Below, in pieces: positions 4,249 through 49,822 of a stretch of DNA of 64,000 nt. The DNA is from Candidatus Enterousia sp. (GTDB taxonomy: Bacteria > Pseudomonadota > Alphaproteobacteria > Rs-D84), in assembly GCA_045614145.1 (NCBI GenBank), contig JAZLCH010000007.1:5806-69805 (forward strand). Reading direction: 5' to 3'. The translations under genes were made by a program, and so were the position numbers. Under the pieces are notes generated by a model. It did not search any database, was not told where the DNA came from, and worked only from the letters and a program-made list of their open reading frames with translations. Each line of letters begins with the position of its first letter. Position 1 is the stretch's first letter.

Positions 4249-5210
4249 CGCATGTGTGATTGTTTTAGTATTGCGATTCCGTCATGAAATTTTTTGCCGT
4301 TTTGCAGTGCTGTTTTTATTTGTTCACGCAGATATGTGTCGGATGGATATTGTGATATATCTGTTGATGATGTGTTGAATAGGAATTTTGATAGACTGGA
4401 TTCTGCTAGTTGGTGCAAAATGTCAAAGCGTTCGCGAAATAATCGTATGTTTGATTTTTGTGGCAGGTATGGTTCCAGATTTTTATCCATCAGCCAACTG
4501 TCGATAAACATATTTGGGTTTGGGGGGCATTCTGGGAAATATGTTGGGATATTTTCTTGGGCGCGGTTCAATGATTCTGAAACCGATTCGTTTGATAGTT
4601 TTTGGCCACGTGGGACATGTATATTTATACAGTATTCGTGTTTTGGGGTAAATTTTGGAATTTGGTAATCGTATCTCATTAATTCATATTGTAGACGTCC
4701 AAATTCAATAATATGTGCATTGATAAAAAAACTGCCCCAGATTAATTGCGATATTTCAGATCCTTTTATTTTATATACATCCAAGCCGCGTGTACATGTT
4801 TCGCTTATTCTGAAGCGATGTTTGTCTTCTTGATAGCTGTCAAATTTTCTGGATTTCATGTTTTGTTGGTGTGTCTTATATCCAGACAGTAGAATTAATG
4901 CAGGTAGCGGGTCGATTATTTGACGCTTTAAATCATGTGTCCAATTGTATTTAGTAGGTGAAAATAGGTATTTGTTTAAAATGTATGCGCCAGCTTGTAA
5001 GTCGGGTGATGATTTAAATTGTGTTATGTATTTATTGAATAGTTTTTGAAAGTTTTGGTGTTGGTCTAAGCCATAAAATTGCATGGCGGAATTAAAATCA
5101 ATGGAATTTAACCAACTTCTGATTTTTTCTGGGTTTGAATCAATGCTGGATATGTCGTGTGGGGTTATTGTAAAACCGATTTTATGTAATGTTGCTGAAT
5201 TGTTTGACAT
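4245..5210 (-). CDS. Hypothetical protein, 321 aa, N/K/S/Y-rich
   Basis: Long ORF with an RBS and no recognisable motifs. It lies next to tRNA-Lys. Confidence 0.5.
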   Translation of the reverse strand: MSNNSATLHKIGFTITPHDISSIDSNPEKIRSWLNSIDFNSAMQFYGLDQHQNFQKLFNKYITQFKSSPDLQAGAYILNKYLFSPTKYNWTHDLKRQIIDPLPALILLSGYKTHQQNMKSRKFDSYQEDKHRFRISETCTRGLDVYKIKGSEISQLIWGSFFINAHIIEFGRLQYELMRYDYQIPKFTPKHEYCINIHVPRGQKLSNESVSESLNRAQENIPTYFPECPPNPNMFIDSWLMDKNLEPYLPQKSNIRLFRERFDILHQLAESSLSKFLFNTSSTDISQYPSDTYLREQIKTALQNGKKFHDGIAILKQSHMR

Positions 5211-5751: not shown

Positions 5752-6366
5752 ATGAAAAAGTTAGCTTTATCAACACTGGCAGTGCTGATGGCCTGCCCGG
5801 CATTTGCGGGTATTAATCATCCAGACCAGGGCAGCAGCTGGCAAATGTGGGGTATGGACCCATATATTGGATTGAGAGGAGGTATGAGCTATTCAAACCT
5901 GAATTATAAATATAATGGCAATAAGGAAGCCATGACAGATTATATCTTTCAGGGGCGTGCCGCATTAGGTTTGGAAGTGTGTGATACGGTTCGTTCTGAA
6001 ATCGAATGGTCTTATTTTGGCAAATTGTCTGATTCTGAACGCTTTGGCAGCGCAGGCAGCGTTGATGTAGAAGCCAAGATGCAGACCTTGTTGTGGAACA
6101 ATTATATGGAATTTGGTTCGTATAAAATCGTACGTCCATTTGTTGGTGTTGGCGCAGGTATTGCAATGACAGATGTTAAGCGTCATGGCGATTTGATTCC
6201 ACATCACAGCAAGGATGAAACGCGTTTCTCGGCAATGGGAACATTGGGCGTAACATTCGATATGGAACGCTTTGCGGTTGATTTAGCTGCGCGTTATACT
6301 TATGTAGATATTAATTCTGGTCTGCATAACTTTGGTGGTGATGTTGGTATTAGATTTATGTTCTAA
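5752..6366 (+). CDS. Outer-membrane beta-barrel protein (OmpA-like/Omp25/OmpW-type small barrel)
   Basis: Signal peptide, alternating amphipathic strands, C-terminal ...GIRFMF ending in Phe, RBS AAAGGAGAG. Confidence 0.65.
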   Translation: MKKLALSTLAVLMACPAFAGINHPDQGSSWQMWGMDPYIGLRGGMSYSNLNYKYNGNKEAMTDYIFQGRAALGLEVCDTVRSEIEWSYFGKLSDSERFGSAGSVDVEAKMQTLLWNNYMEFGSYKIVRPFVGVGAGIAMTDVKRHGDLIPHHSKDETRFSAMGTLGVTFDMERFAVDLAARYTYVDINSGLHNFGGDVGIRFMF

Positions 6367-10876: not shown

Positions 10877-11125
10877 TTATTTCTGCTTTGTTCTGGCTGC
10901 GTTTATTATACGTTTTTTTGCGCCCGTCATTTTTTGTTCCCATCTGCGGCCAGGCTGTTTAATTTGTTTTGCCGTGTGTGTCGCGGGGTGAGATTTGCCA
11001 CGGATAACGGTGTTGGTTGCTGATGTCTGGAGAGAAGATGGTAATGGAGTGTCTTCAATTTCAACCAGGCCATATTGAACACCAGTAATTAAATTATTTG
11101 ATACTATTTTGATAACCTTTGTCAT
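10877..11125 (-). CDS. Hypothetical small protein, 82 aa
   Basis: ORF with the RBS AAAGGAA 7 nt upstream, between gatB and miaB. No family recognised. Confidence 0.4.
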   Translation of the reverse strand: MTKVIKIVSNNLITGVQYGLVEIEDTPLPSSLQTSATNTVIRGKSHPATHTAKQIKQPGRRWEQKMTGAKKRIINAARTKQK

Positions 11126-11155
11126 TGTGTATTCCTTTTGTTTTTTTTTGTGTTA

Positions 11156-12676
11156 TTAAGCCAATTTATTACGCAATATTTCGTTTACAACGGCTGGGTT
11201 TGCAGTGCCGCCAGTTTTCTTCATTACATTGCCAACAAAGAAGCCCAGTAATCCAACCTTGCCAGATTTGTATTGTTCAACTTGGGATGGATTTGTGGCG
11301 ATAACTTCGTCAACAATCGCTTCGATTGCACCGGTGTCGGTCATTTGTTTCATGCCAAATTTGTCGGCGATGTCACGCGGGGTGCCCGATTCGCCATCCA
11401 GCATTTTTATAAAGATTTCTTTGGCCTGTTTGCCGTTGATTGTGTTTTCGGCAACCATGTCAACCAGTTCGGCCAAATCAAATGGTGTGATAATACGCAT
11501 GTCATCCACAATGCCTGATTTTTCGTTTTTGACATCCCAGTTTTCTGGGTGCGCGAACAATTCAGAAATCATCCAGTTTGCAACGCCCTTGGCGCGTTTT
11601 TTGTCGCCATTTACAGATGCGTCATACCAATGTGATATATCAGTGCTTTCGGTCAGACGTGCGGCATCATATTCAGACAGCCCGAATTCATGCGTATAGC
11701 GCGTGCGTGTCGCAGATGGTAATTCCGGCATGGTGCTGCGTATGCGTTCAATTTGTTCATCAGATATTTCCAGTGGCAACAGGTCCGGGTCTGGGAAATA
11801 ACGATAGTCCAGTGCGTCTTCTTTGCTGCGCATAACAGATGTAGTGCCGTCGCCCTGGTGATAGCGCATTGTGTCCTGGGTGACTTGGCCGCCGTTTTCA
11901 TAGATTTCGATTTGACGGCGGGCCTCAAATTCAATGGCGGATTTGATAAATTTAAATGACACCATGTTTTTTGTCTCGGTGCGTGTGCGGAATTCGGTTG
12001 AACCAACAGGTCGGACAGAAACGTTAACGTCGGCGCGCATTGAACCTTCTTCCATGTTGGCGCGTGATACGCCCAGTGCGCGTGCGATTTCGCGAATTTC
12101 ACGCAGATAACGTTCTGCTTCGTCTGGGGATGTGATATAGGAATTATTTTCAGGATTTTTTGTATCCAAAAAAGTCACGATTTCCAGTAATGCAACCCCG
12201 GTGCGGTTATAGTCTGCAAATGATTTTGTTGGATGAACATCATGTTTTAATTTACCGGCGTCTTGTTCCAAATGTGCGCGTTCGATTAAAATTTTCTTTG
12301 GATTGCCATCGTCGCCCATAATTTCAACCCAACCGCGACCAACAACCGGTGGTTCGTCCGCAGGCTGTGAAATCTGGTATCCTTGGGGCAGGTCAGGGTA
12401 GAAATATTGTTTACGGGCAAAACGACTGATGCGGGAAATTTCTGCATTCAGCCCCAGCCCCATTTTAATTGCCTGGTCAACACAGAATTTGTTTATAACC
12501 GGCAACATTCCTGGCATTGCGACATCAATCATTGATGCCTGGGTGTTGGGTGATATGGTTGGGTTATAGTCGGCAGATGCGCCACTGAATAATTTTGAAT
12601 TAGAAAGGACTTCGATATGTGTTTCCAGTCCGATTACCAATTCCCAATCACATGTTTTGCCTTTTATCGTAAACAT
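11156..12676 (-). CDS. gatB: Asp-tRNA(Asn)/Glu-tRNA(Gln) amidotransferase subunit B
   Basis: GatB N-terminus MFTIKGKTCDWELVIGLETHIEV and a C-terminal YqeY-like domain. 506 aa. Confidence 0.9.
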   Translation of the reverse strand: MFTIKGKTCDWELVIGLETHIEVLSNSKLFSGASADYNPTISPNTQASMIDVAMPGMLPVINKFCVDQAIKMGLGLNAEISRISRFARKQYFYPDLPQGYQISQPADEPPVVGRGWVEIMGDDGNPKKILIERAHLEQDAGKLKHDVHPTKSFADYNRTGVALLEIVTFLDTKNPENNSYITSPDEAERYLREIREIARALGVSRANMEEGSMRADVNVSVRPVGSTEFRTRTETKNMVSFKFIKSAIEFEARRQIEIYENGGQVTQDTMRYHQGDGTTSVMRSKEDALDYRYFPDPDLLPLEISDEQIERIRSTMPELPSATRTRYTHEFGLSEYDAARLTESTDISHWYDASVNGDKKRAKGVANWMISELFAHPENWDVKNEKSGIVDDMRIITPFDLAELVDMVAENTINGKQAKEIFIKMLDGESGTPRDIADKFGMKQMTDTGAIEAIVDEVIATNPSQVEQYKSGKVGLLGFFVGNVMKKTGGTANPAVVNEILRNKLA

Positions 12677-12730
12677 TTTGTCTTTTTCCCTTGCTTTTTT
12701 ATTTTTTGTATCTTATTATTGTCGTCGCGT

Positions 12731-12806
12731 TGGCTAGGTAGCTCAGTTGGTAGAGCAAGGGACTGAAAATCCCTGTGTCGGCGGTTCGATTCCGTCCCTA
12801 GCCACC
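12731..12806 (+). tRNA. tRNA-Phe (anticodon GAA)
   Basis: Acceptor stem GGCTAGG/CCTAGCC, anticodon loop CTGAAAA, T-loop TTCGATT, encoded CCA. 76 nt. Confidence 0.9.
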
Positions 12807-12820
12807 ATCTCCTTTCTAAT

Positions 12821-12844
12821 TGCGACCGTTGCGGTCGTTTTTTT
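12821..12844 (+). terminator. Terminator after tRNA-Phe
   Basis: GCGACCGTTGCGGTCG hairpin followed by T8. Confidence 0.6.
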
Positions 12845-12876
12845 ATTGTCCATGGAGATGGTGCGGTTGTTCATTT

Positions 12877-14343
12877 TTATTTCCCCATAATTATTGTTGG
12901 GCGGTTGTCAATGGCGGCCGCGATTTCAATGTGTTTTGCCAATTGCAGAACGCGCATGTCGTCAAAACGGCGACCCACAACCTGAATCCCCAGTGGCAGA
13001 CCGTTGCCTGCCAGGCCGGCCGGGACACTGCATGCAGGTACGCCTGCCAGGTTCATCGCAACCGTGAATAAATCCAGTGCGTAATATTCCAATGGGGTCA
13101 GGTCTGAATCCAATGGCATTGCGGTGCCAGCAGATGACGGACAGATGATTAAGTCGCATTGATCAAAGGCGGCATTAAAACTGTCAGATATCATGCGGCG
13201 TACGCGTGCAGCCTGCATAAAGTATACATCGTATGATTCACTGGACAGTACCGCGGTGCCGATTACCATACGGCGTTGTACTTCGTCGCCAAAGCCGGCG
13301 GCGCGTGACTTTTTAAATGTGTCATAGATATCACGACCTTCGACACGAATGCCATAGCGCATGCCGTCATAACGTGCCAGGTTTGATGATGCCTCGGCCG
13401 GGGCGATGATATAGTATGCTGCCAATGCGTCCAGGATGTTGGGAATAGATACTTCAACAATTTCTGCGCCCATGGATTTTAAATCGGCAATGCGTTTTTC
13501 AAATAATGTCTTCATGTCGTCTGAAATCTTAACGTCGCCAAATTCGCGAATTATGCCAACGCGTAATTTTTTGCCATTGCCCAGAATAGGCTGAATTTCA
13601 GATGTACAGGTGAAATTGTTTTCGCAACTGGTGGATTCGTGCGCGTCGTGTCCCGCCATGATGTTTAATAATAATCCTGCATCGTCAACGGTGCGTGTGA
13701 TTGGGCCGGGGGTGTCCAGGGAAGACGCAAATGCGATACAGCCAAAGCGTGAACACAGACCGTATGTTGGCTTCATCCCAACCAAGCCGGTTATTGCCGC
13801 CGGAAAGCGAATTGAGCCGCCGGTGTCTGTACCCGTTGCCGCAATGGCCAATCCACCCGCCACCGCAGATGTTGAACCGCCCGAAGAGCCACCCGCGGTC
13901 AGGCGTTTTTCAATTTGCCATGGGTTGACAGGTGCGCCAAAGTAAGAAGTCTTGCTGAAAGTACCCATTGCGAATTCGTCCAGGTTTGCCTTGCCCAATA
14001 ATACGGTGCCGGCATCAATGAATTTTTGTGATATGGTTGATTCGTATTCAGGAACAAAATTTTCCAGCATGCGTGATGCCGCGGTTGTGCGAATGCCGCG
14101 CGTGGCAAATAAATCTTTCATTGCGATTGGTGCGCCGTCCAAGAATTTTGCGTCACCTGCGGCGCGACGCGCATCAGATGCGGCGGCGTCTGCCATTGCG
14201 CGTTCAGGCGTGGTTGTGATATAGCAATTTAAATCCGTGCCATATTTTTCAATGCGATCCAGATACGCGCGTGTTAATTCCACCGCAGAAATTTCGCGGG
14301 CGTTCAGTTTTTTTAGTGCTTCGGTCAATGTCAGGTTTATCAT
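12877..14343 (-). CDS. gatA: Glutamyl-tRNA(Gln) amidotransferase subunit A
   Basis: Amidase signature GGSSGGS... 488 aa. The start ATG overlaps the upstream ORF's stop (ATGA). Confidence 0.9.
   Translation of the reverse strand: MINLTLTEALKKLNAREISAVELTRAYLDRIEKYGTDLNCYITTTPERAMADAAASDARRAAGDAKFLDGAPIAMKDLFATRGIRTTAASRMLENFVPEYESTISQKFIDAGTVLLGKANLDEFAMGTFSKTSYFGAPVNPWQIEKRLTAGGSSGGSTSAVAGGLAIAATGTDTGGSIRFPAAITGLVGMKPTYGLCSRFGCIAFASSLDTPGPITRTVDDAGLLLNIMAGHDAHESTSCENNFTCTSEIQPILGNGKKLRVGIIREFGDVKISDDMKTLFEKRIADLKSMGAEIVEVSIPNILDALAAYYIIAPAEASSNLARYDGMRYGIRVEGRDIYDTFKKSRAAGFGDEVQRRMVIGTAVLSSESYDVYFMQAARVRRMISDSFNAAFDQCDLIICPSSAGTAMPLDSDLTPLEYYALDLFTVAMNLAGVPACSVPAGLAGNGLPLGIQVVGRRFDDMRVLQLAKHIEIAAAIDNRPTIIMGK
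14240..14343 (-). repeat. Direct repeat copy 1 (authentic gatA codons 1-35), also present at 14883-14986
   Basis: 104 bp, 5 mismatches relative to copy 2. Confidence 0.85.
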
Positions 14344-14882
14344 TTTTGTTTCTCTGATGGTTTTGTTGATTGTTTTTGCAGTTCTATAATTTCAAATTCT
14401 TTCTGTGCGATAAGTTTTTTTATGTTTTCAATAGAAGCATAATATTCAGCAATTTCTTTTTTGCGGATGTCAATTTTTGATTGGGTTGCAGAAGCGGTTT
14501 GTGCGTTTGGTGTGAATTCTACATTTTTTTCACGAATATAGTTGTGTAAAGCGTGTGCGTTCAGCCCAAGTGCCATAAATTCTTGATTGCTAAACTGGTT
14601 GAAGATGTCGATATGCTTTTCAATAAGTAACTCAATCATATATGTGATATCTGAAACTGCTTTTTTGCCTAAGTTTCTAAACCTAAGCAAGTCTTCTCTG
14701 CGGGTGTTCATCAAGTCTAACAGTGTGACAATTCGTGCTTTATCAAATGTGGCGGTTGCAGGGTTGTATGTATGCTGCGTGTTAGATAACGCGTTGATAG
14801 TGCGTGCGTTTAATCCCAAGTCTTGTATCTTTGTGTTTAAAAGTTCTTGTATAGTCATTGTATGTTCCTCTTTATTCACCAT
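14340..14882 (-). CDS. Stand-alone protein resembling the RNA polymerase alpha C-terminal domain (two helix-hairpin-helix repeats) with a coiled-coil tail; inserted into the gatCAB operon
   Basis: IQDLGLNARTINALSN...IVTLLDLMNTRREDLLRFRNLGKKAVSDITYMIELL closely parallels the RpoA alpha-CTD motif LELSVRSANCLK...LLKTPNLGKKSLTEIKDVL. The start overlaps the stop of the gatA stub (ATGGTGA), and the stop overlaps the gatA ATG. Confidence 0.6.
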   Translation of the reverse strand: MVNKEEHTMTIQELLNTKIQDLGLNARTINALSNTQHTYNPATATFDKARIVTLLDLMNTRREDLLRFRNLGKKAVSDITYMIELLIEKHIDIFNQFSNQEFMALGLNAHALHNYIREKNVEFTPNAQTASATQSKIDIRKKEIAEYYASIENIKKLIAQKEFEIIELQKQSTKPSEKQK

Positions 14883-14986
14883 CCATATTTTTCAATGCGA
14901 TCCAGATACGCGCGTGTTAATTCCACCGCAGAAAGTTCGCGGGTGTTTAGTTTTTTTAGTGCTTCGGTCAATGTTAGATTTATCAT
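14876..14986 (-). pseudogene. Duplicated 5' fragment of gatA (36-aa stub MINLTLTEALKKLNTRELSAVELTRAYLDRIEKYGW*)
   Basis: 95% identical at the DNA level to gatA codons 1-35 and their RBS. It terminates at a TGA created at the duplication boundary. Confidence 0.8.
14883..14986 (-). repeat. Direct repeat copy 2 of the gatA 5' segment
   Basis: See copy 1 at 14240-14343. Similarity extends about 12 bp further upstream through the RBS. Confidence 0.85.
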
Positions 14987-14998
14987 TTCTGTTTGCTC

Positions 14999-15430
14999 TT
15001 ACTTTTGTTTATCGGTTGCGTAGTGTTGTGGGTATAAGATTGCACCCAGTGTGTTGCGTATAAATTCATCCTGGCATTTGCCGTTTTTCAAATTGCGCGC
15101 GCAACGTTTTATTTTTGCCGCTTCATCCAGTTCGCAATTCTGTTTGCCGCATTGTGGGTATTGATCAAAATAAAACATTCCGTCAATAGACAGTGAACGA
15201 TGACGTGCGTTGCCGCCAATGGCACGACCAAACCCAGTGCTTTCCGTATATTCAAGATTTAGAGTTTTTATACAGGCATTGACAGCAACGTTTGGTGTAG
15301 ATAATTTTTCCATCAAGGTATCAAGTTCACTGCGTGTAAGATGGCCCAATGATGCAATGTGGTTTGGGAAATGTTCATATGGTTCATACTGAACAAAATG
15401 TACAGGAATGTTTTTTTCTGTGTCTGGCAT
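14999..15430 (-). CDS. Hypothetical Cys-rich protein (C-x4-C...C-x8-C zinc-ribbon-like), 143 aa, between gatC and the gatA stub
   Basis: ORF starting at the Met at 15430, immediately after the gatC stop. The ORF-table start at 15529 would overlap gatC. Contains QCGKQNC...RCARNLKNGKC. Confidence 0.5.
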   Translation of the reverse strand: MPDTEKNIPVHFVQYEPYEHFPNHIASLGHLTRSELDTLMEKLSTPNVAVNACIKTLNLEYTESTGFGRAIGGNARHRSLSIDGMFYFDQYPQCGKQNCELDEAAKIKRCARNLKNGKCQDEFIRNTLGAILYPQHYATDKQK

Positions 15431-15431
15431 T

Positions 15432-15728
15432 TTATTCTCCGTCCATAACCTTGGGTACTGCGAAATAGCCACGTGATGTGCCAGCGTTGTCGGGCGTGTT
15501 TGCCAAAACCAAATCTCGAATGTTGCCATCGGTGACGATGTCTTCGCGTTGTGGTAATTTGTGTTCTGATGGATTCAACATTGGGGTCACACCCGTTGTG
15601 TCAATTTTTTGTAATTTATCCAGCCATTCAACCACAGAATCAATGTTCATGGATTCCAGTTTTTCTGGGCTGATTTCAATTTTGATTAAATCTGCAAATT
15701 TTTGTAATTGTTGCTTGCTAAATGCCAT
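15432..15728 (-). CDS. gatC: Glutamyl-tRNA(Gln) amidotransferase subunit C
   Basis: About 98 aa starting MAFSKQQLQKFADLIKIEISPEKLE. Typical GatC in size and sequence, lying upstream of gatA and gatB. Confidence 0.8.
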   Translation of the reverse strand: MAFSKQQLQKFADLIKIEISPEKLESMNIDSVVEWLDKLQKIDTTGVTPMLNPSEHKLPQREDIVTDGNIRDLVLANTPDNAGTSRGYFAVPKVMDGE

Positions 15729-15766
15729 TTTCAATCCTATTATTTTAAAGTAAAAGGAATTATACA

Positions 15767-16216
15767 ATGATTTTGCCAGATTTCAAGGCTTTTCCACGCG
15801 CCGGGCGTGTTTTGGGAATTGATTGGGGACTGCGACGGATTGGGGTTGCGGTATCTGACCCAATGCGCGATTTTGTCTTTGCTCGTGATGCGATTGTTTT
15901 GCCACGTGGGGCAGAAAATCATGCCGATTTGGTTGCCGATATGGCAATGCGGGAAAATGTGGTTGGTGTTATTGTCGGGCTGCCGTTATATCCGGATGGC
16001 AGTGCATCAAATACAACGAAAATGGTGTGTGACTTTATTGATAAATTGGCAGAAAAAACAGATTTGCCAATTTGCACAATAGAAGAAAACCTGACATCTG
16101 TTTCGGCCCAAGAAGATATGGGGCGCGTTCGTGTGCGTGATTTAAAGACGCGTCTGGATTCGGAATCTGCACGCGTGATTTTGGAAAATGCAATTGCAAT
16201 GATTAACCGGGCATAA
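15767..16216 (+). CDS. ruvX: Putative pre-16S rRNA nuclease / Holliday junction resolvase-like YqgF
   Basis: RVLGIDWGLRRIGVAVSD motif of the RuvX/YqgF family. 149 aa. Confidence 0.8.
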   Translation: MILPDFKAFPRAGRVLGIDWGLRRIGVAVSDPMRDFVFARDAIVLPRGAENHADLVADMAMRENVVGVIVGLPLYPDGSASNTTKMVCDFIDKLAEKTDLPICTIEENLTSVSAQEDMGRVRVRDLKTRLDSESARVILENAIAMINRA

Positions 16217-16230
16217 TGCCCGGTTTTTAT
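16207..16230. terminator. Bidirectional terminator
   Basis: CCGGGCATAATGCCCGG hairpin followed by T5. Confidence 0.65.
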
Positions 16231-16246
16231 GCGTATAACGCGTTTT

Positions 16247-17278
16247 TTATTCTTCGTTTTTGTCGGGGATCTGACCGTCTGCGGACAGTAATACCGCAAT
16301 CCAACGTGTGTTATCAAACTGGGCGCATATTATGTACAGCGCAACCAATAACGGAACACTAAAGAACATGCCGGCGATTCCCCATATCATGCCCCATACA
16401 ACCAGGTTTATTAATATTGCCAATGTTGACAGGTTAAGGGTCTTGCCAGTCAATTTTGGTTCGATAATGTTTCCGAATAATATTTGCAGGCCGATTAAGC
16501 CGACGGCGGTTAATAGCGGTTCTTGCAATGTGGGGGATGATACCAGTGAATATAGTATTGGCAGACCGCATGCGACGATTGCGCCAATTGTTGGAATATA
16601 GCTGGTGATAAATACGATAAATGCCCAGACACCTGCGAATTCCAGGCCAATTGTCTGCAGCCACAGGTATGATGCGACACCAGTTATCGCAGATATAGTT
16701 GTTTTGACAAACAGGTATTTCTTCATGTTGGTATCAATGCTGTCCAGGATATAGCGCATCTTTTTATACTGTCGGCGGCCAGGGAACATAGCGTTGAATT
16801 TTTTGTTAAATGTACTTTGTTCAACAAACATGAATATCATGTATACCAGTACCATACCAAATGACGTAGCAATCCCTGCAATAGAGGAACCGATATTTGC
16901 AGCAATCTTGGTGATGTTTGGAATCATGTTTGCATCAAAGGTTAGTCCAACGGAATTTGACAGGTACGTCCCAAATTCGGTCAGTTTTGTTTGCAGGGCA
17001 GGCAACGCCGCCAGCAGTTCTGAAAACATTGGATGTATCTGGGTGGTAAATAGGTAGCCAACCATGCATACTGTTATCAATGTTGTTATGTTCGCAATCC
17101 AATCAAATATGTGATTTTGAAGTTGCTTGTCTTTGTGTGTTGGCAGCGCGCGACGATAATAGTCGGACATGGCATTCATTAAATACCACAGAAATCCTGC
17201 GATTAATAATGGGATGAATATGGAACGGCCAATCCATAACAGAAAAATACTGCCGATAAATATTATTATTTTGTTCAT
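16247..17278 (-). CDS. AI-2E family (PerM/UPF0118) transporter-like membrane protein
   Basis: 343-aa polytopic protein with the size and hydrophobicity pattern of AI-2E permeases. Confidence 0.55.
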   Translation of the reverse strand: MNKIIIFIGSIFLLWIGRSIFIPLLIAGFLWYLMNAMSDYYRRALPTHKDKQLQNHIFDWIANITTLITVCMVGYLFTTQIHPMFSELLAALPALQTKLTEFGTYLSNSVGLTFDANMIPNITKIAANIGSSIAGIATSFGMVLVYMIFMFVEQSTFNKKFNAMFPGRRQYKKMRYILDSIDTNMKKYLFVKTTISAITGVASYLWLQTIGLEFAGVWAFIVFITSYIPTIGAIVACGLPILYSLVSSPTLQEPLLTAVGLIGLQILFGNIIEPKLTGKTLNLSTLAILINLVVWGMIWGIAGMFFSVPLLVALYIICAQFDNTRWIAVLLSADGQIPDKNEE

Positions 17279-45552: not shown

Positions 45553-45580
45553 ATCCCCCGCGTATGCGGGGGGATTTTTA
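45553..45580 (-). terminator. Terminator after typA
   Basis: ATCCCCCGCGTATGCGGGGGAT hairpin with a T-run on the minus strand. Confidence 0.65.
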
Positions 45581-47410
45581 TTCGTCTATGTGTTTCTTTA
45601 ATTTTTTACGGGTGTTGCTGTCCAGTTCTTTTTTGCGCAGACGAATTGTATCAGGTGTGATTTCAACCAATTCGTCGTCCAAGATATAGGACAAGGCTTC
45701 TTCCAGCGAAATGCGACGCGGTGGTGCCAAGAATAATTTTTCATCGGCAGTGACCGAACGCATGTTTGTTAATTCTTTACCCTTGATTGGGTTGACTTCC
45801 AAATCATTTTCTTTGCTGTGTTCGCCGATAATCATACCGGAATAAACCTCGGTCTGGGGGTCAATGAACAGTGTGCCGCGTGGTTGCAGATTAAACAGTG
45901 CATATGTTGCGGCTGTGCCTTTCTCCATTGATACCAATACACCGGGGCGGTATTGCTGAATCGCACCGCGGTATGTGTCGTATTTATCAAATACGCGGTT
46001 CATAATGCCAGTGCCGCGCGTGTCAGTGCGAAATTCAGACAGGTATCCAATCAATCCGCGTGATGGGGCAGAAAATACAATACGTGTTTTGCCTGCACCA
46101 GATGCCTTCATTTCGGTGATTGTTGCCTTGCGCTTGGTCATTTTTTCAATAACGACACCGCTGAATTCGTCGTCTACATCAATTACGACGTCTTCGATTG
46201 GTTCTAACTTTTCGCCGTTTTCGTTTGTTTGCATTACAACGCGTGGGCGCGATACGGACAATTCAAAGCCTTCGCGACGCATTGTTTCAATTAAAATGCC
46301 CAGCTGCAATTCGCCACGACCAGAAACTTCGAATGCTTCGTTGTTTTCACTTTGTTCAACTTTTAATGCAATGTTTGTTTCGGCTTCTTTAAATAATCTT
46401 TCGCCAATCATGCGGGATGTTAATTTCTTGCCGGATTTACCAGCCAAAGGTGATGTGTTTACAAAAAATGTCATCGTCAGGGTTGGCGGGTCAATCGGCA
46501 TTGCAGGAATCGGTTCGGTGACAGATGGGTCACATAAAGTGTCGGCCACGGTCGCCTTGGAAAAGCCGGCAACAACCACAATGTCGCCTGCGGATGCGGT
46601 ATCGCGGGAAATCTTTTCAATGCCACGATGTTCGATGATTTTTGTAATCTTGGCGTTTTCAATAAATTCGCCATTGCGATTTATTGCCTTGACCGATTGG
46701 CCAACGCGAACGGTGCCAGATTCAATTTTGCCGGTCAGAATACGGCCGACGTACGGGTCCGCTTCCAGTGTGGTGGCCAGCATTGTAAATGGTGCGTCCA
46801 GTTGACAACGGCTGCCGTTGCAATCAGGGGCCGGAACATGGTCAACAATTAATTGGAATAATGGGGTCAGGTCTTTGCGTTCGTCATTTAAATCGCGTAC
46901 CGCCCAACCATCACGGCCAACAGAATATAAATATGGGAAATCCAGTTGGGAATCGGTAGCACCCAGTTTGTCAAATAAATCAAATGTTTCGGTTAAGACT
47001 TCGTCAGGGCGTGCGTCGGCACGGTCAACCTTGTTAATACATACGATTGGGCGCAGCCCCAGCTTTAATGCCTTGGACAATACGAATTTAGTCTGGGGCA
47101 GGGGGCCTTCGGCACTGTCGACCAACAGGACAACACCATCAACCATGGATAAAATGCGTTCAACTTCGCCGCCAAAGTCTGCGTGCCCAGGCGTGTCAAC
47201 AATGTTAATTTTGTATTCGCCCCACTGAATCGAAGTTGGCTTGGCAGAAATAGTAATGCCGCGTTCGCGTTCGATATCACCACTGTCCATAACGCGTTCG
47301 TCAACGCGTTCGTTGTCGCGGAATGTTCCTGCTTGTTTTAGCATATTGTCAACCAATGTGGTTTTGCCATGGTCAACGTGCGCAATAATTGCAATGTTGC
47401 GAATTTTCAT
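45578..47410 (-). CDS. typA: Translational GTPase TypA/BipA
   Basis: AHVDHGKTT, DTPGHADF, NKVD GTPase motifs and the EF-G-like domain layout. 610 aa. Confidence 0.9.
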   Translation of the reverse strand: MKIRNIAIIAHVDHGKTTLVDNMLKQAGTFRDNERVDERVMDSGDIERERGITISAKPTSIQWGEYKINIVDTPGHADFGGEVERILSMVDGVVLLVDSAEGPLPQTKFVLSKALKLGLRPIVCINKVDRADARPDEVLTETFDLFDKLGATDSQLDFPYLYSVGRDGWAVRDLNDERKDLTPLFQLIVDHVPAPDCNGSRCQLDAPFTMLATTLEADPYVGRILTGKIESGTVRVGQSVKAINRNGEFIENAKITKIIEHRGIEKISRDTASAGDIVVVAGFSKATVADTLCDPSVTEPIPAMPIDPPTLTMTFFVNTSPLAGKSGKKLTSRMIGERLFKEAETNIALKVEQSENNEAFEVSGRGELQLGILIETMRREGFELSVSRPRVVMQTNENGEKLEPIEDVVIDVDDEFSGVVIEKMTKRKATITEMKASGAGKTRIVFSAPSRGLIGYLSEFRTDTRGTGIMNRVFDKYDTYRGAIQQYRPGVLVSMEKGTAATYALFNLQPRGTLFIDPQTEVYSGMIIGEHSKENDLEVNPIKGKELTNMRSVTADEKLFLAPPRRISLEEALSYILDDELVEITPDTIRLRKKELDSNTRKKLKKHIDE

Positions 47411-47563: not shown

Positions 47564-48004
47564 GTGGTGGATTTTAATGCAACGTTGACCAAGTTTTTTG
47601 AGGAGATTATAAAGTATTTGGCAAAACGCGCCCAGAATGCAAAGACGCTGGAGATTAGGGATGATGTAATGGCTGCAATAACGGCTGTGCGCAGGGTTAT
47701 GGCAGATCCAAAGGGATTTGCGGATTATAATGTGCGTGTAAAAGCAGGATTGGAAGCCCATACTGTTGTTGATGGATTTATGGCAGGAACGCGTGATAAT
47801 TCAGTGTTTTTGCTGTATAACAGCGTTTTATGGGCAATTAATGATTTGTATAGCCCGTATGAATGGGAACGTGAACAGGCCCAGCAAAAGCTGTTGAACG
47901 CCAAAAAATCAATTGAATATAAAAATTCTACAAATTTATTGAAAAGTTTATACTATCCATTTTTGCCAGAAAAAATGTTTGCAGAAAAAGTAAAACAGAA
48001 ATAA
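47564..48004 (+). CDS. Hypothetical protein, 146 aa (GTG start); tandem paralogue of the next gene
   Basis: RBS AAAGGAGA 8 nt before the GTG. Own terminator. Weak similarity to the downstream ORF. Confidence 0.45.
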   Translation: MVDFNATLTKFFEEIIKYLAKRAQNAKTLEIRDDVMAAITAVRRVMADPKGFADYNVRVKAGLEAHTVVDGFMAGTRDNSVFLLYNSVLWAINDLYSPYEWEREQAQQKLLNAKKSIEYKNSTNLLKSLYYPFLPEKMFAEKVKQK

Positions 48005-48005
48005 A

Positions 48006-48030
48006 AAAACGCCCAATTGGGCGTTTCTTT
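48006..48030 (+). terminator. Terminator
   Basis: AACGCCCAATTGGGCGTT hairpin followed by TCTTT. Confidence 0.55.
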
Positions 48031-48065
48031 ATGTTATAATGTACATAGTTATAAAAGGAGTTTAT

Positions 48066-48518
48066 ATGAGTAATAATTTCTCAGATGCAGAGGTTTATCT
48101 GGCGATTAAGTCGGCATTTGGTGCATTAAAGGGGCTGGCAAAAAATTCTTTGAATAAGGCGGCATTGCCAAAAAGTCAGGCAATGGTAAAGAAATCAATG
48201 GAAAATATAGACTTTATCATTAAAAGACCGCGCGCCGCATTAGAGGCGTATCGTGATACAGGTGGAAAAAAATCTGTTTCTGATAAAATATTAGATGATG
48301 TCGAAGGAATATTGGGGGTGACGGCTGATCATGACCTGTATGTTCTATTCCATAATATTTCTGTGTATATTGATCATTGGTTTACAAATGGCAAAGATGA
48401 AAATAATGCAAAAAAGATTGTCGCAGAATCAAAGCGCTTGAATAATATGTTGGATTTGCAAAATTCAAATGCGATTGTGCGACCATTTAAAAAATTAGCC
48501 CAGATGTTCCAACGATAA
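48066..48518 (+). CDS. Hypothetical protein, 150 aa; tandem paralogue of the previous gene
   Basis: RBS AAAAGGAG. A TATAAT at 48035-48040. Own terminator. Confidence 0.45.
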   Translation: MSNNFSDAEVYLAIKSAFGALKGLAKNSLNKAALPKSQAMVKKSMENIDFIIKRPRAALEAYRDTGGKKSVSDKILDDVEGILGVTADHDLYVLFHNISVYIDHWFTNGKDENNAKKIVAESKRLNNMLDLQNSNAIVRPFKKLAQMFQR

Positions 48519-48547
48519 AAAACGCCCGTATGGGCGTTTTTCTTTTA
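48519..48547. terminator. Bidirectional terminator (also the serS 3' end)
   Basis: AACGCCCGTATGGGCGTT hairpin with T-runs on both strands. Confidence 0.65.
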
Positions 48548-49822
48548 ATGTTTGCCACCAATTTTTGTGCGTCCACCCATCAGTGGTTGCAGCTTCTTGG
48601 GGATGTTTACAGAACCGTCTGGGTTTTGGTGATTTTCAATTACTGGCACAATCGCGCGTGGCAGGGCGATTCCCGTGTTGTTCAGGGTTGCGCAGAACTG
48701 CATATTGCCATTTTTATCACGAAAGCGCGTGTTGGTGCGACGGGCCTGGAATTGGCCAATTGATGAACAAGACCCCAGTTCGCGGTATGCGCCTTCGCTG
48801 GGGAACCAGGCTTCGACATCGTTCATTTTTACTTTGTTAAAGCCCATGTCGCCGGTGCAGGCCGCAATAACGCGGTATGGTAATTCCAGATCTTCCATGA
48901 TTTCACACAGATTGTTTAACAGATGTTCATGCATTTCGTCTGACTGTTCAGGGGTGCAGTATATGTACTGTTCGACCTTGTTAAATTGGTGTATGCGCAC
49001 GATTCCGCGGGTGTCACGACCGGCGGCACCTGCTTCTTTGCGGAAACATGGTGAAAAACCCGCATATTTTATCGGCAGGTCTTTTTCGTTCAGGACTTCG
49101 TCACTGTGCAGGCAATTCAAGATGATTTCTGCGGTGCCTGCCAGGCAACGGTCTGTGTCTGTTAACATGAACACATCGTTTGACATAACAGATGGATCGG
49201 TGCCCATAAAGTGGCCTGCGTTAAATATTGTTTGTGGCTTGGTGATTGATGGACAGCTGACGAATGTAAAGCCTTTGCTTATTAATTTTTGTAAAACGTA
49301 TGTTTCAATCGCCAGTTCTAATTCGGCGGCTTCGCCAAACAGGGCATATGTGCGTGCGCCACAAATTGATGCGATTTTTTCAGGTTTCCACCATCCGTTC
49401 ATTTCCAATAAATCCCATTGGGGGCGTGGTGTGAAATCAAATTCACGCGGTGTGCCAACACGGCGAACTTCGACATTTTCGGTGTCGTCACGACCGATTG
49501 GTGCTGCGTCAGATGGAATTTGTGGTACGCGGTGTAGCAGGTCTGTTAATTGTTTTTCTTTTTCGTCCAGTTCCGCCATGTCGTTTGCGATTTCGTTTGC
49601 AATTGCCTTGGAGGCAGCAATCAATGGTGCCTTGTCTGTGGCGGTTGGAATTTCGCGTGTGATTTTGTTCTTTTCGGCGGTCTTGGACTGGGTGATTGTT
49701 TTTAATTCACGAACGCGCGCATCCAGTTCCAGAATCTGGTCGGTGTAATCTGTAAAGCCTTTTAATTCGCATGCACGTTTTACGGTATCTGGATTTTCAC
49801 GAATGAATTTTATATCAAGCAT
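48545..49822 (-). CDS. serS: Seryl-tRNA synthetase
   Basis: Class II aaRS motifs, N-terminal coiled-coil arm, 425 aa. Confidence 0.9.
   Translation of the reverse strand: MLDIKFIRENPDTVKRACELKGFTDYTDQILELDARVRELKTITQSKTAEKNKITREIPTATDKAPLIAASKAIANEIANDMAELDEKEKQLTDLLHRVPQIPSDAAPIGRDDTENVEVRRVGTPREFDFTPRPQWDLLEMNGWWKPEKIASICGARTYALFGEAAELELAIETYVLQKLISKGFTFVSCPSITKPQTIFNAGHFMGTDPSVMSNDVFMLTDTDRCLAGTAEIILNCLHSDEVLNEKDLPIKYAGFSPCFRKEAGAAGRDTRGIVRIHQFNKVEQYIYCTPEQSDEMHEHLLNNLCEIMEDLELPYRVIAACTGDMGFNKVKMNDVEAWFPSEGAYRELGSCSSIGQFQARRTNTRFRDKNGNMQFCATLNNTGIALPRAIVPVIENHQNPDGSVNIPKKLQPLMGGRTKIGGKH

Follow-up and report, generated by a model that had tools for sequence, protein, structure and literature searches.

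Two accessory genes stacked between gatC and gatA in a Candidatus Enterousia genome: a variable operon slot and a likely illegitimate crossover

The genus Candidatus Enterousia belongs to the alphaproteobacterial order Rs-D84, and its genomes are mostly smaller than 1 Mb (PMC12306168). In the genome studied here (assembly GCA_045614145.1), the gatCAB operon holds two additional genes between gatC and gatA, which we call orf143 and orf172, and the start of gatA is present twice. The window we refer to throughout is the whole stretch of DNA that was analysed, 64,000 nucleotides (nt) of contig JAZLCH010000007.1. We consider it likely that the gatC-gatA junction of the genus is a hypervariable accessory-gene slot, and that two alleles of this slot were joined here by one illegitimate crossover. 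One parent allele would have been arranged as gatC-orf143-gatA and the other as gatC-orf172-gatA. A single unequal, microhomology-mediated recombination between them, at the pentanucleotide TATGG, would yield gatC, orf143, the gatA leader with codons 1-35, the last 16 nt of a second gatC with its spacer and Shine-Dalgarno sequence, orf172 and, finally, an intact gatA. The duplicated target would then be a side effect of the crossover geometry, that is, neither a target-site duplication nor the outcome of homing repair.

The junction and its parental alleles

All features of the operon lie on the minus strand, except an antisense tRNA-Phe gene. Intact gatA (488 amino acids (aa), 12877..14343; Pfam Amidase, 442 bits) begins with the segment 14240-14343, and this segment recurs 643 nt upstream of it, at 14883-14986. 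Alignment of the two copies gave 104 nt with 5 mismatches (95.2% identity), exactly as an earlier, sequence-only reading of the window had reported. With 8 leader bases added, the repeat measures 112 nt (14240-14351 vs 14883-14994, 6 mismatches), and no other long repeat was found in 11000-17000. The upstream copy comprises gatA codons 1-35 and keeps a 12-nt gatA leader in front of it (GAGCAAACAGAA, 14987..14998). Repeat and junction comparison places a second, A-rich gatA leader (AAACAAAA) at 14344..14351, where it forms the last codons of orf172. The upstream copy opens a 36-aa open reading frame (ORF; MINLTLTEALKKLNTRELSAVELTRAYLDRIEKYGW, 14876..14986), the GatA stub of the earlier reading, which passes out of frame into the sequence beyond the repeat and stops at a TGA (14876-14878). 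This stop had been described as created at the duplication boundary; it does lie just outside the boundary, but it arises where the ORF runs through a gatC tail in the wrong frame. The stub keeps the gatA initiation region and its peptide is probably translated. Its ORF stops 17 nt ahead of the orf172 start.

Directly after the last repeated base stands TATGGATGGTGAATAAAGAGGAACATACAATG. This string agrees with the junction between the gatC end and the orf172 start at 31 of 32 positions in L081, L082 and L094, and at 30 of 32 in L093. In these four independent assemblies (L081 and L082 from ENA, L093 and L094 from Logan) gatC directly precedes an orf172 homologue (84% to at least 90% aa identity), and their consensus from the gatC end to the gene start is GTTATGGATGG(A/T/C)GAATAAAGAGGA(A/G)CATACAATG. 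Because these junctions match, the string in the window can be read as the last 16 nt of gatC (14872..14887; TATGGATGGTGAATAA, or ..M D G E stop, by sequence comparison with other gatC tails), then a 13-nt spacer with a Shine-Dalgarno sequence (14859..14871; AGAGGAACATACA; identical in L081 and L082, one mismatch in L093 and L094), then the true ATG of orf172. BLAST alignments of the window with L081, L093 and L094 start precisely at the T of TATGG (14887). These 5 nt (14883..14887) are common to gatA codons 33-35 (AAATATGG) and to the last codons of gatC (GTTATGG). At its left edge the insert thus consists of the last 16 nt of a gatC, fused to gatA codon 35 across 5 nt of microhomology, the signature of an unequal illegitimate crossover between two slot alleles. 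The string ATGGTGA, once taken for the overlap of the stub's stop with the start of the inserted gene, belongs to this gatC 3'-end remnant, so its ATG is very probably no start codon.

The commonest gatC tail variant in the genus (9 loci) has exactly the sequence of the remnant, as does the tail of L094; the remnant differs at 2 of its 16 nt from the tail of the window genome's own gatC (98 aa, 15432..15728; Pfam GatC, 44.5 bits), which ends in ...GTTATGGACGGAGAATAA. The other parental arrangement is seen in L084 (Logan, SRR28221503), which reads gatC-orf143-gatA with neither stub nor orf172. Its orf143 is 99% identical in aa sequence to that of the window, and its 12-nt orf143-gatA spacer is identical to the leader before the stub. 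Both parental arrangements therefore occur in nature, the orf143 type in L084 and the orf172 type in L081, L082, L093 and L094. The two extra genes had been read as a single inserted cassette; orf143-type genes turn out to be the usual residents of the slot, and the orf172 segment alone is the newcomer.

The natural occurrence of both alleles also suits an assembly or library artefact, namely a chimeric join between an orf143-bearing and an orf172-bearing strain that occurred together in the assembled metagenome. The relatives are all metagenome-assembled genomes (MAGs) or metagenome contigs, the junction and stub are absent from all other assemblies searched, and similarity to L084, about 96% in the upstream part, is down to about 92% within gatA. 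On the other hand, the joined parts share just the 5 nt of TATGG, far below an assembly k-mer, so that a mis-join in the assembly graph would not be expected. The product, moreover, is in phase and compatible with the operon, with gatA intact, and mosaic identity is found throughout the genus. We judge an artefact very improbable.

A selfish mobile cassette, be it a free-standing homing endonuclease gene, an insertion sequence or an integron-like element, had been proposed to have entered gatA and regenerated its target. Variable presence between conserved essential genes would fit such an element, as would a direct repeat on both sides of the insert. However, its left border is a gatC tail at a microhomology and no element end, and the borders carry no inverted repeats. 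Target-site duplications are far shorter than 104 nt, so the repeat exceeds their length by far. Scans of the two window genes and of family representatives with Pfam, PHROGs and PADLOC brought up no domain of an endonuclease, transposase or integrase, and the orf143 model has no structural match. Nor is the left border constant between genomes. In L083 the same cassette has a second illegitimate junction: the sequence is of the L058 type until ...AAAATGGA and of the L081 type from ACATACAATG... onwards, with the switch at GGA, a 3-nt microhomology with the L058-type spacer of an orf143-like gene (L083 orf171-cassette junction; L083 3940-4010 vs L058 5614-5670 and L081 711-745). Since the left borders in L083 and in the window differ, the orf172 cassette has no fixed left end. 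We find insertion of a mobile cassette extremely improbable, and a transposable element was rejected (no transposase domain, a 104-nt repeat, a gatC tail at the left end of the insert). As a separate observation, the GGA junction of L083 falls in the region that is the start codon of another slot gene, of family F2, in L058.

Several points weigh against the single crossover between alleles. The two gatA heads differ from each other at 5 of 104 positions and from L084 at 6-7; they show 6-8 mismatches to L001 and L078 over the 112-nt repeat, and about 13 to L093 and L094. The heads are thus mutually closer than either is to any relative. A two-step route would fit this closeness equally well. 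Neither gatA-head nor gatC-tail remnants were found in other occupied slots (62 others were scanned for the tail), and a single scar does not support a general role for such crossovers in building arrays. The window genome is probably metagenome-assembled, like all its relatives, and the junction rests on one assembly. As for orf172, an AlphaFold2 model from a 4-sequence alignment reached a mean confidence (predicted local distance difference test, pLDDT) of 49, with residues 1-64 below 50. Finally, that the genes are transcribed together, that the stub is translated and what the two proteins do are inferences.

In the two-step route, the main rival to a single crossover, the segment from the gatC tail to gatA codon 35 would first be duplicated in tandem by unequal exchange between sister chromosomes at TATGG, and one of the two cassettes would then be replaced through homologous recombination in the flanks. 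In its favour, the heads are each other's closest match (every other locus has 6 or more mismatches), and cassette replacement is common in the genus. It requires two events where one is enough, however, and the gatC remnant, being exact in other lineages and off the window's own tail, points rather to a foreign allele, unless the two differences arose by later substitution. Polarising the five variable sites of the heads against relatives gave an ambiguous result, both copies being about equally far from L084, L001 and L078. We hold this route to be quite unlikely.

Searches beyond the assembled loci returned no second instance of the junction. A degenerate 22-mer of it gave 6 chance matches in JGI metagenomes, with homology confined to the pattern, and exact look-ups of the stub peptide, of the formerly proposed 180-aa protein and of P0001, an NCBI-derived product, gave no record.

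A crossover between slot alleles would belong to a known type of event. It resembles illegitimate recombination at microhomologies and unequal crossing-over in having a 5-nt microhomology junction, a direct repeat with new sequence between its copies, and a downstream gene that is kept. It differs from bacterial tandem duplication by unequal crossover in that the partners carried different cassettes, so that two accessory genes became stacked. In addition, the event took place inside an essential operon and left a translatable 36-aa stub.

A variable slot between two conserved genes

The wider setting was surveyed in 79 related loci that hold both gatC and gatA, the closest genomes being Candidatus Enterousia MAGs from animal guts. 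As the sequence-only reading would lead one to look for, uninterrupted gatC-gatA junctions do exist in relatives: 21 of the 79 loci have no slot gene, with a gap of 5-67 nt. One gene is present in 30 loci (in one of them a truncated remnant), two in 20, three in 7 and four in a single locus. Throughout the survey, slot genes are co-oriented with the operon and closely packed. They fall into four multi-member families and three singletons. Family F1, to which orf143 belongs, is represented by 70 copies in 53 of the 79 loci, with a maximum of three per locus; F2 has 12 copies and F3 has 6. F4 comprises the orf172-like genes, and F6, one of the singletons, is likewise similar to the C-terminal domain of the RNA polymerase alpha subunit (alpha-CTD).

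The slot genes and their flanks tell different histories. Pairwise identity has a median of 88% for both GatA and GatC but of 39% for F1. Among the 20 pairs of loci with GatA identity of at least 95%, F1 identity is bimodal, at either 42-56% or 77-98%. For example, the loci closest to the window by GatA, L001 and L078 (98%), have F1 proteins merely 41-43% identical to that of the window, whereas L013 and L075, with GatA at 88-90%, have F1 proteins that are 91% identical to it. Slot gene content is therefore discordant with the phylogeny of the flanks, and from this discordance of F1 with GatA and GatC it follows that cassettes have been swapped between species. The fast turnover of alleles suggests conflict-type selection.

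In a 183-nt slot of L038 the sole content is a 59-aa truncated F1 remnant (5810-5989, with residues 6-49 matched), which suggests that cassettes are also lost by deletion. Extra DNA also lies between ruvX and gatC in L008 (3756-5273) and L072 (4801-5265). At 4596-4697 the L008 segment matches F1 C-terminal-like sequence; the confinement of variable genes to the gatC-gatA gap is therefore not strict. The gatA-gatB gaps of L009 and L071 are enlarged too. In L002 (7471-9172) a 426-aa ORF ending in ...KQK directly follows gatA, then come repeated fragments resembling the 3' end of tRNA-Phe, and then the real tRNA-Phe, an arrangement that looks like integration at a tRNA.

The cassettes share one feature at their 3' ends. 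A Q-K/R-stop ending, encoded by A-rich ...AAACAAAAA, is found in 70 of 96 cassette ORFs vs 3 of 80 window ORFs. The A-rich 3' end also stands directly upstream of gatA in many occupied slots, and many cassette ORFs read through it. Elsewhere in the window, two small ORFs of 146 and 159 aa lie on the plus strand at 47564-48518, between two large minus-strand ORFs at 45578-47410 and 48545-49822. The 146-aa ORF ends in ...KVKQK and is the sole other window ORF of at least 120 aa with a cassette-type Q-K/R-stop.

Several known systems resemble the slot in part. Like integron arrays, it consists of co-oriented, packed small genes (0-4) of varied content that are shared between species, sit downstream of a single predicted promoter and have no detected promoter-like site of their own. 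Unlike them, its borders vary between genomes, and the array lies between two essential genes that need read-through. An integron cassette array was rejected as a candidate: no integrase occurs among the called neighbours (the full window was not scanned for one), no attC-like inverted repeats were found at cassette ends, and the feature common to these ends is limited to the A-rich ...AAACAAAAA with its stop codon. With the hypervariable regions of SAR11 and the islands of Prochlorococcus the slot shares a small genome and variable content at a conserved position that is exchanged between lineages, but it is only 0-1.6 kb long, packed, inside an operon and dominated by one orphan family. The free-standing homing endonuclease genes of phage T4 (seg/mob) are likewise optional genes between conserved essential genes, with discordant phylogeny; the slot proteins differ in having no detected endonuclease domain or fold, and the window junction can be explained without cleavage and repair. 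A free-standing homing endonuclease gene was accordingly discarded as a candidate, with no LAGLIDADG, GIY-YIG, HNH or PD-(D/E)xK domain in Pfam or PHROGs and no such fold in the structure search.

The two proteins and their families

The orf172 gene occupies 14340..14858, and its stop overlaps the gatA ATG (ATGA). The protein has an N-terminal alpha-CTD-like domain with the sequence signature of two helix-hairpin-helix (HhH) motifs, (HhH)2, and a predicted long C-terminal helix. Its homologues, P0001 and the Shine-Dalgarno sequence AAGAGGA all agree on the ATG at 14858 and a length of 172 aa; the 180-aa version considered earlier (14340-14882) begins 24 nt upstream of this true start. The likeness to an alpha-CTD, already suspected from the sequence, is borne out. 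The protein matches Pfam PF03118 (RNA_pol_A_CTD) with 41.4 bits, above the cut-off of 23.8, although the match is interrupted by an insertion of about 14 aa between the two hairpins. Relatives free of the insertion match PF03118 contiguously (38.5 bits for the L018 homologue, 51.1 bits for the F6 protein of L051). Searches of the Protein Data Bank (PDB) with phmmer and with a family profile returned RpoA CTDs exclusively (13 sequences for the profile), the best being 1z3e_B (6e-6) over the entire domain.

R19 and G64 are invariant in the orf172 family, and the N62-L63-G64-K65-K66 of orf172 aligns with the NLG(R/K)K of RpoA chains. This arginine and the N-L-G-K-K stretch correspond to R265 and N294-K298 of E. 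coli, which contact DNA in RpoA. Conservation thus points to a stand-alone alpha-CTD-like DNA-binding domain in which the equivalents of R265, N294, G296 and K298 are kept. Compared with the alpha-CTD of RpoA (PF03118; Bacillus subtilis, PDB 1z3e_B), orf172 shares the (HhH)2 signature and the conserved Arg and N-L-G-K-K, but it stands alone, has the insertion of about 14 aa in the window allele and continues into a predicted long helix after the domain. It has no other Pfam domain: the CTD-like domain is N-terminal, and the alpha N-terminal dimerisation and assembly domain is missing. A bona fide RNA polymerase alpha subunit was rejected on this ground, the 172 aa holding no such domain. In the low-confidence AlphaFold2 model the C-terminal third forms a single long helix, through which the protein may possibly dimerise.

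This family is rare, with 19 proteins among 5.8 billion. Across its alleles (the window, L081-L083 and P0002-P0004) the N-terminal HhH half is the more variable, while the C-terminal half is near-identical. A 530-nt ENA contig (L085, 1-530) is 99% identical to window 14705-14324, and its first 148 nt are unrelated, which places a breakpoint within the alpha-CTD-like gene. The most distant match of the F4 profile, P0200 (222 aa, Logan), has an alpha-CTD-like domain fused to sigma-70 region 4 domains (PF04545, PF08281).

The first gene of the slot, orf143 (14999..15430), begins 1 nt past the gatC stop and ends in ...DKQK-TAA. Family F1 is large, with 32 close relatives found and, among 1.84 billion representatives, at least 182 clusters at 50% identity. 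In Pfam, PHROGs, PADLOC and PDB, orf143 has no sequence match. Its AlphaFold model is confident (pLDDT 82) and shows a beta/alpha unit of four strands with three helices after it, and a structure search with this model gave no match and no nuclease fold. Two features mark F1: four invariant cysteines that stand apart from one another, and the C-terminal motif C..NL..GKC.DEFIR.TLG..L.P..Y, which is strongly conserved. The protein had been described as a Cys4 zinc ribbon; the cysteines, invariant but isolated and forming no CxxC knuckles, do not support this reading, and metal binding is possible. HNH nucleases had also been suggested for comparison, and neither an HNH domain (Pfam, PHROGs) nor such a fold (structure search) was found.

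F1 modules also occur in fused forms. In P0055 and L039 an F1 domain is fused to an alpha-CTD-like domain, in P0061 to F2 and in P0104 to a second F1. Because F1 is joined to an alpha-CTD-like domain in other genomes, orf143 is probably an orphan-fold protein acting in the same pathway as orf172. Three further proteins (P0098, P0109 and P0126) combine an N-terminal domain resembling acyl carrier protein with an F1 C-terminal module; they carry a GMDSLD motif and reach 18.7 bits for PP-binding, below the cut-off. One of them, P0098 (L086 1155-1871), lies outside gatCAB and adjoins an unidentified 297-aa ORF.

Searches of F2 and F3 in Pfam, PHROGs and PADLOC gave nothing, and a profile-profile comparison found no relationship between F1 and F2. 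PADLOC defence models had no match at E<=0.1 for orf172, orf143 and the representatives of F2 and F3.

Operon context and significance

The identities of gatC, gatA and gatB (506 aa, 11156..12676) are upheld by Pfam, and ruvX is divergent from gatC. The GatA of the window is 98% identical to that of L001 and L078. The called neighbours are housekeeping genes (RuvX, an AI-2E-family transporter, a SufBD-like protein, an ABC-ATPase, GatA/GatB). As described at first sight, the two additional genes lie within the operon, between gatC and gatA, and the gatA start overlaps the stop of the second. A sigma-70-like promoter candidate (TTGAAA-16-TATAAT, 11 of 12 matches) lies upstream of gatC at 15759..15786, and no terminator-like site above chance was found on the minus strand between gatC and gatA. 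Intergenic spacing is 1 nt, 12 nt and 17 nt, followed by the ATGA overlap; this spacing suggests that all the genes would be co-transcribed from the promoter upstream of gatC and translationally coupled.

Between gatA and gatB lies the antisense tRNA-Phe(GAA) gene (12732..12807, plus strand), the sole match in an Rfam scan of 12000-16500. It occupies the same antisense position in all five related loci checked that reach that far (L001 7505-7580; L002 9097-9172; L009 8788-8863; L071 7888-7963; L081 2886-2961).

A broader and rather unlikely proposal is that the slot is an integrase-free, operon-embedded diversification locus. It would borrow an essential operon's expression to produce small, rapidly swapped proteins directed at DNA or RNA polymerase (F1 and the alpha-CTD mimics, at times fused to one another) for use in conflicts with phages, with hosts or with competitors. 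Crossovers between gatA heads and gatC tails would lengthen the array, and the window genome would have been caught before loss of the scar.

The literature search turned up no account of variable genes in gatCAB and none of alpha-CTD proteins that stand alone as orf172 does. To the extent of the libraries and literature searched, then, neither the slot nor family F1 nor these stand-alone proteins have been described. One expects a genome smaller than 1 Mb to be stable and to lack optional genes; here, a gap inside an essential operon is the most variable spot of its neighbourhood. It carries a large orphan family together with rare copies of the RNA polymerase alpha-CTD that stand alone. On our reading, the scar provides a base-resolved example of two genes being stacked without a recombinase while the downstream essential gene stays unbroken. 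The slot could also be used as a strain-level marker of exchange. Should its proteins act on DNA or on transcription, they would represent a new class of accessory factors, one found in uncultured gut symbionts.

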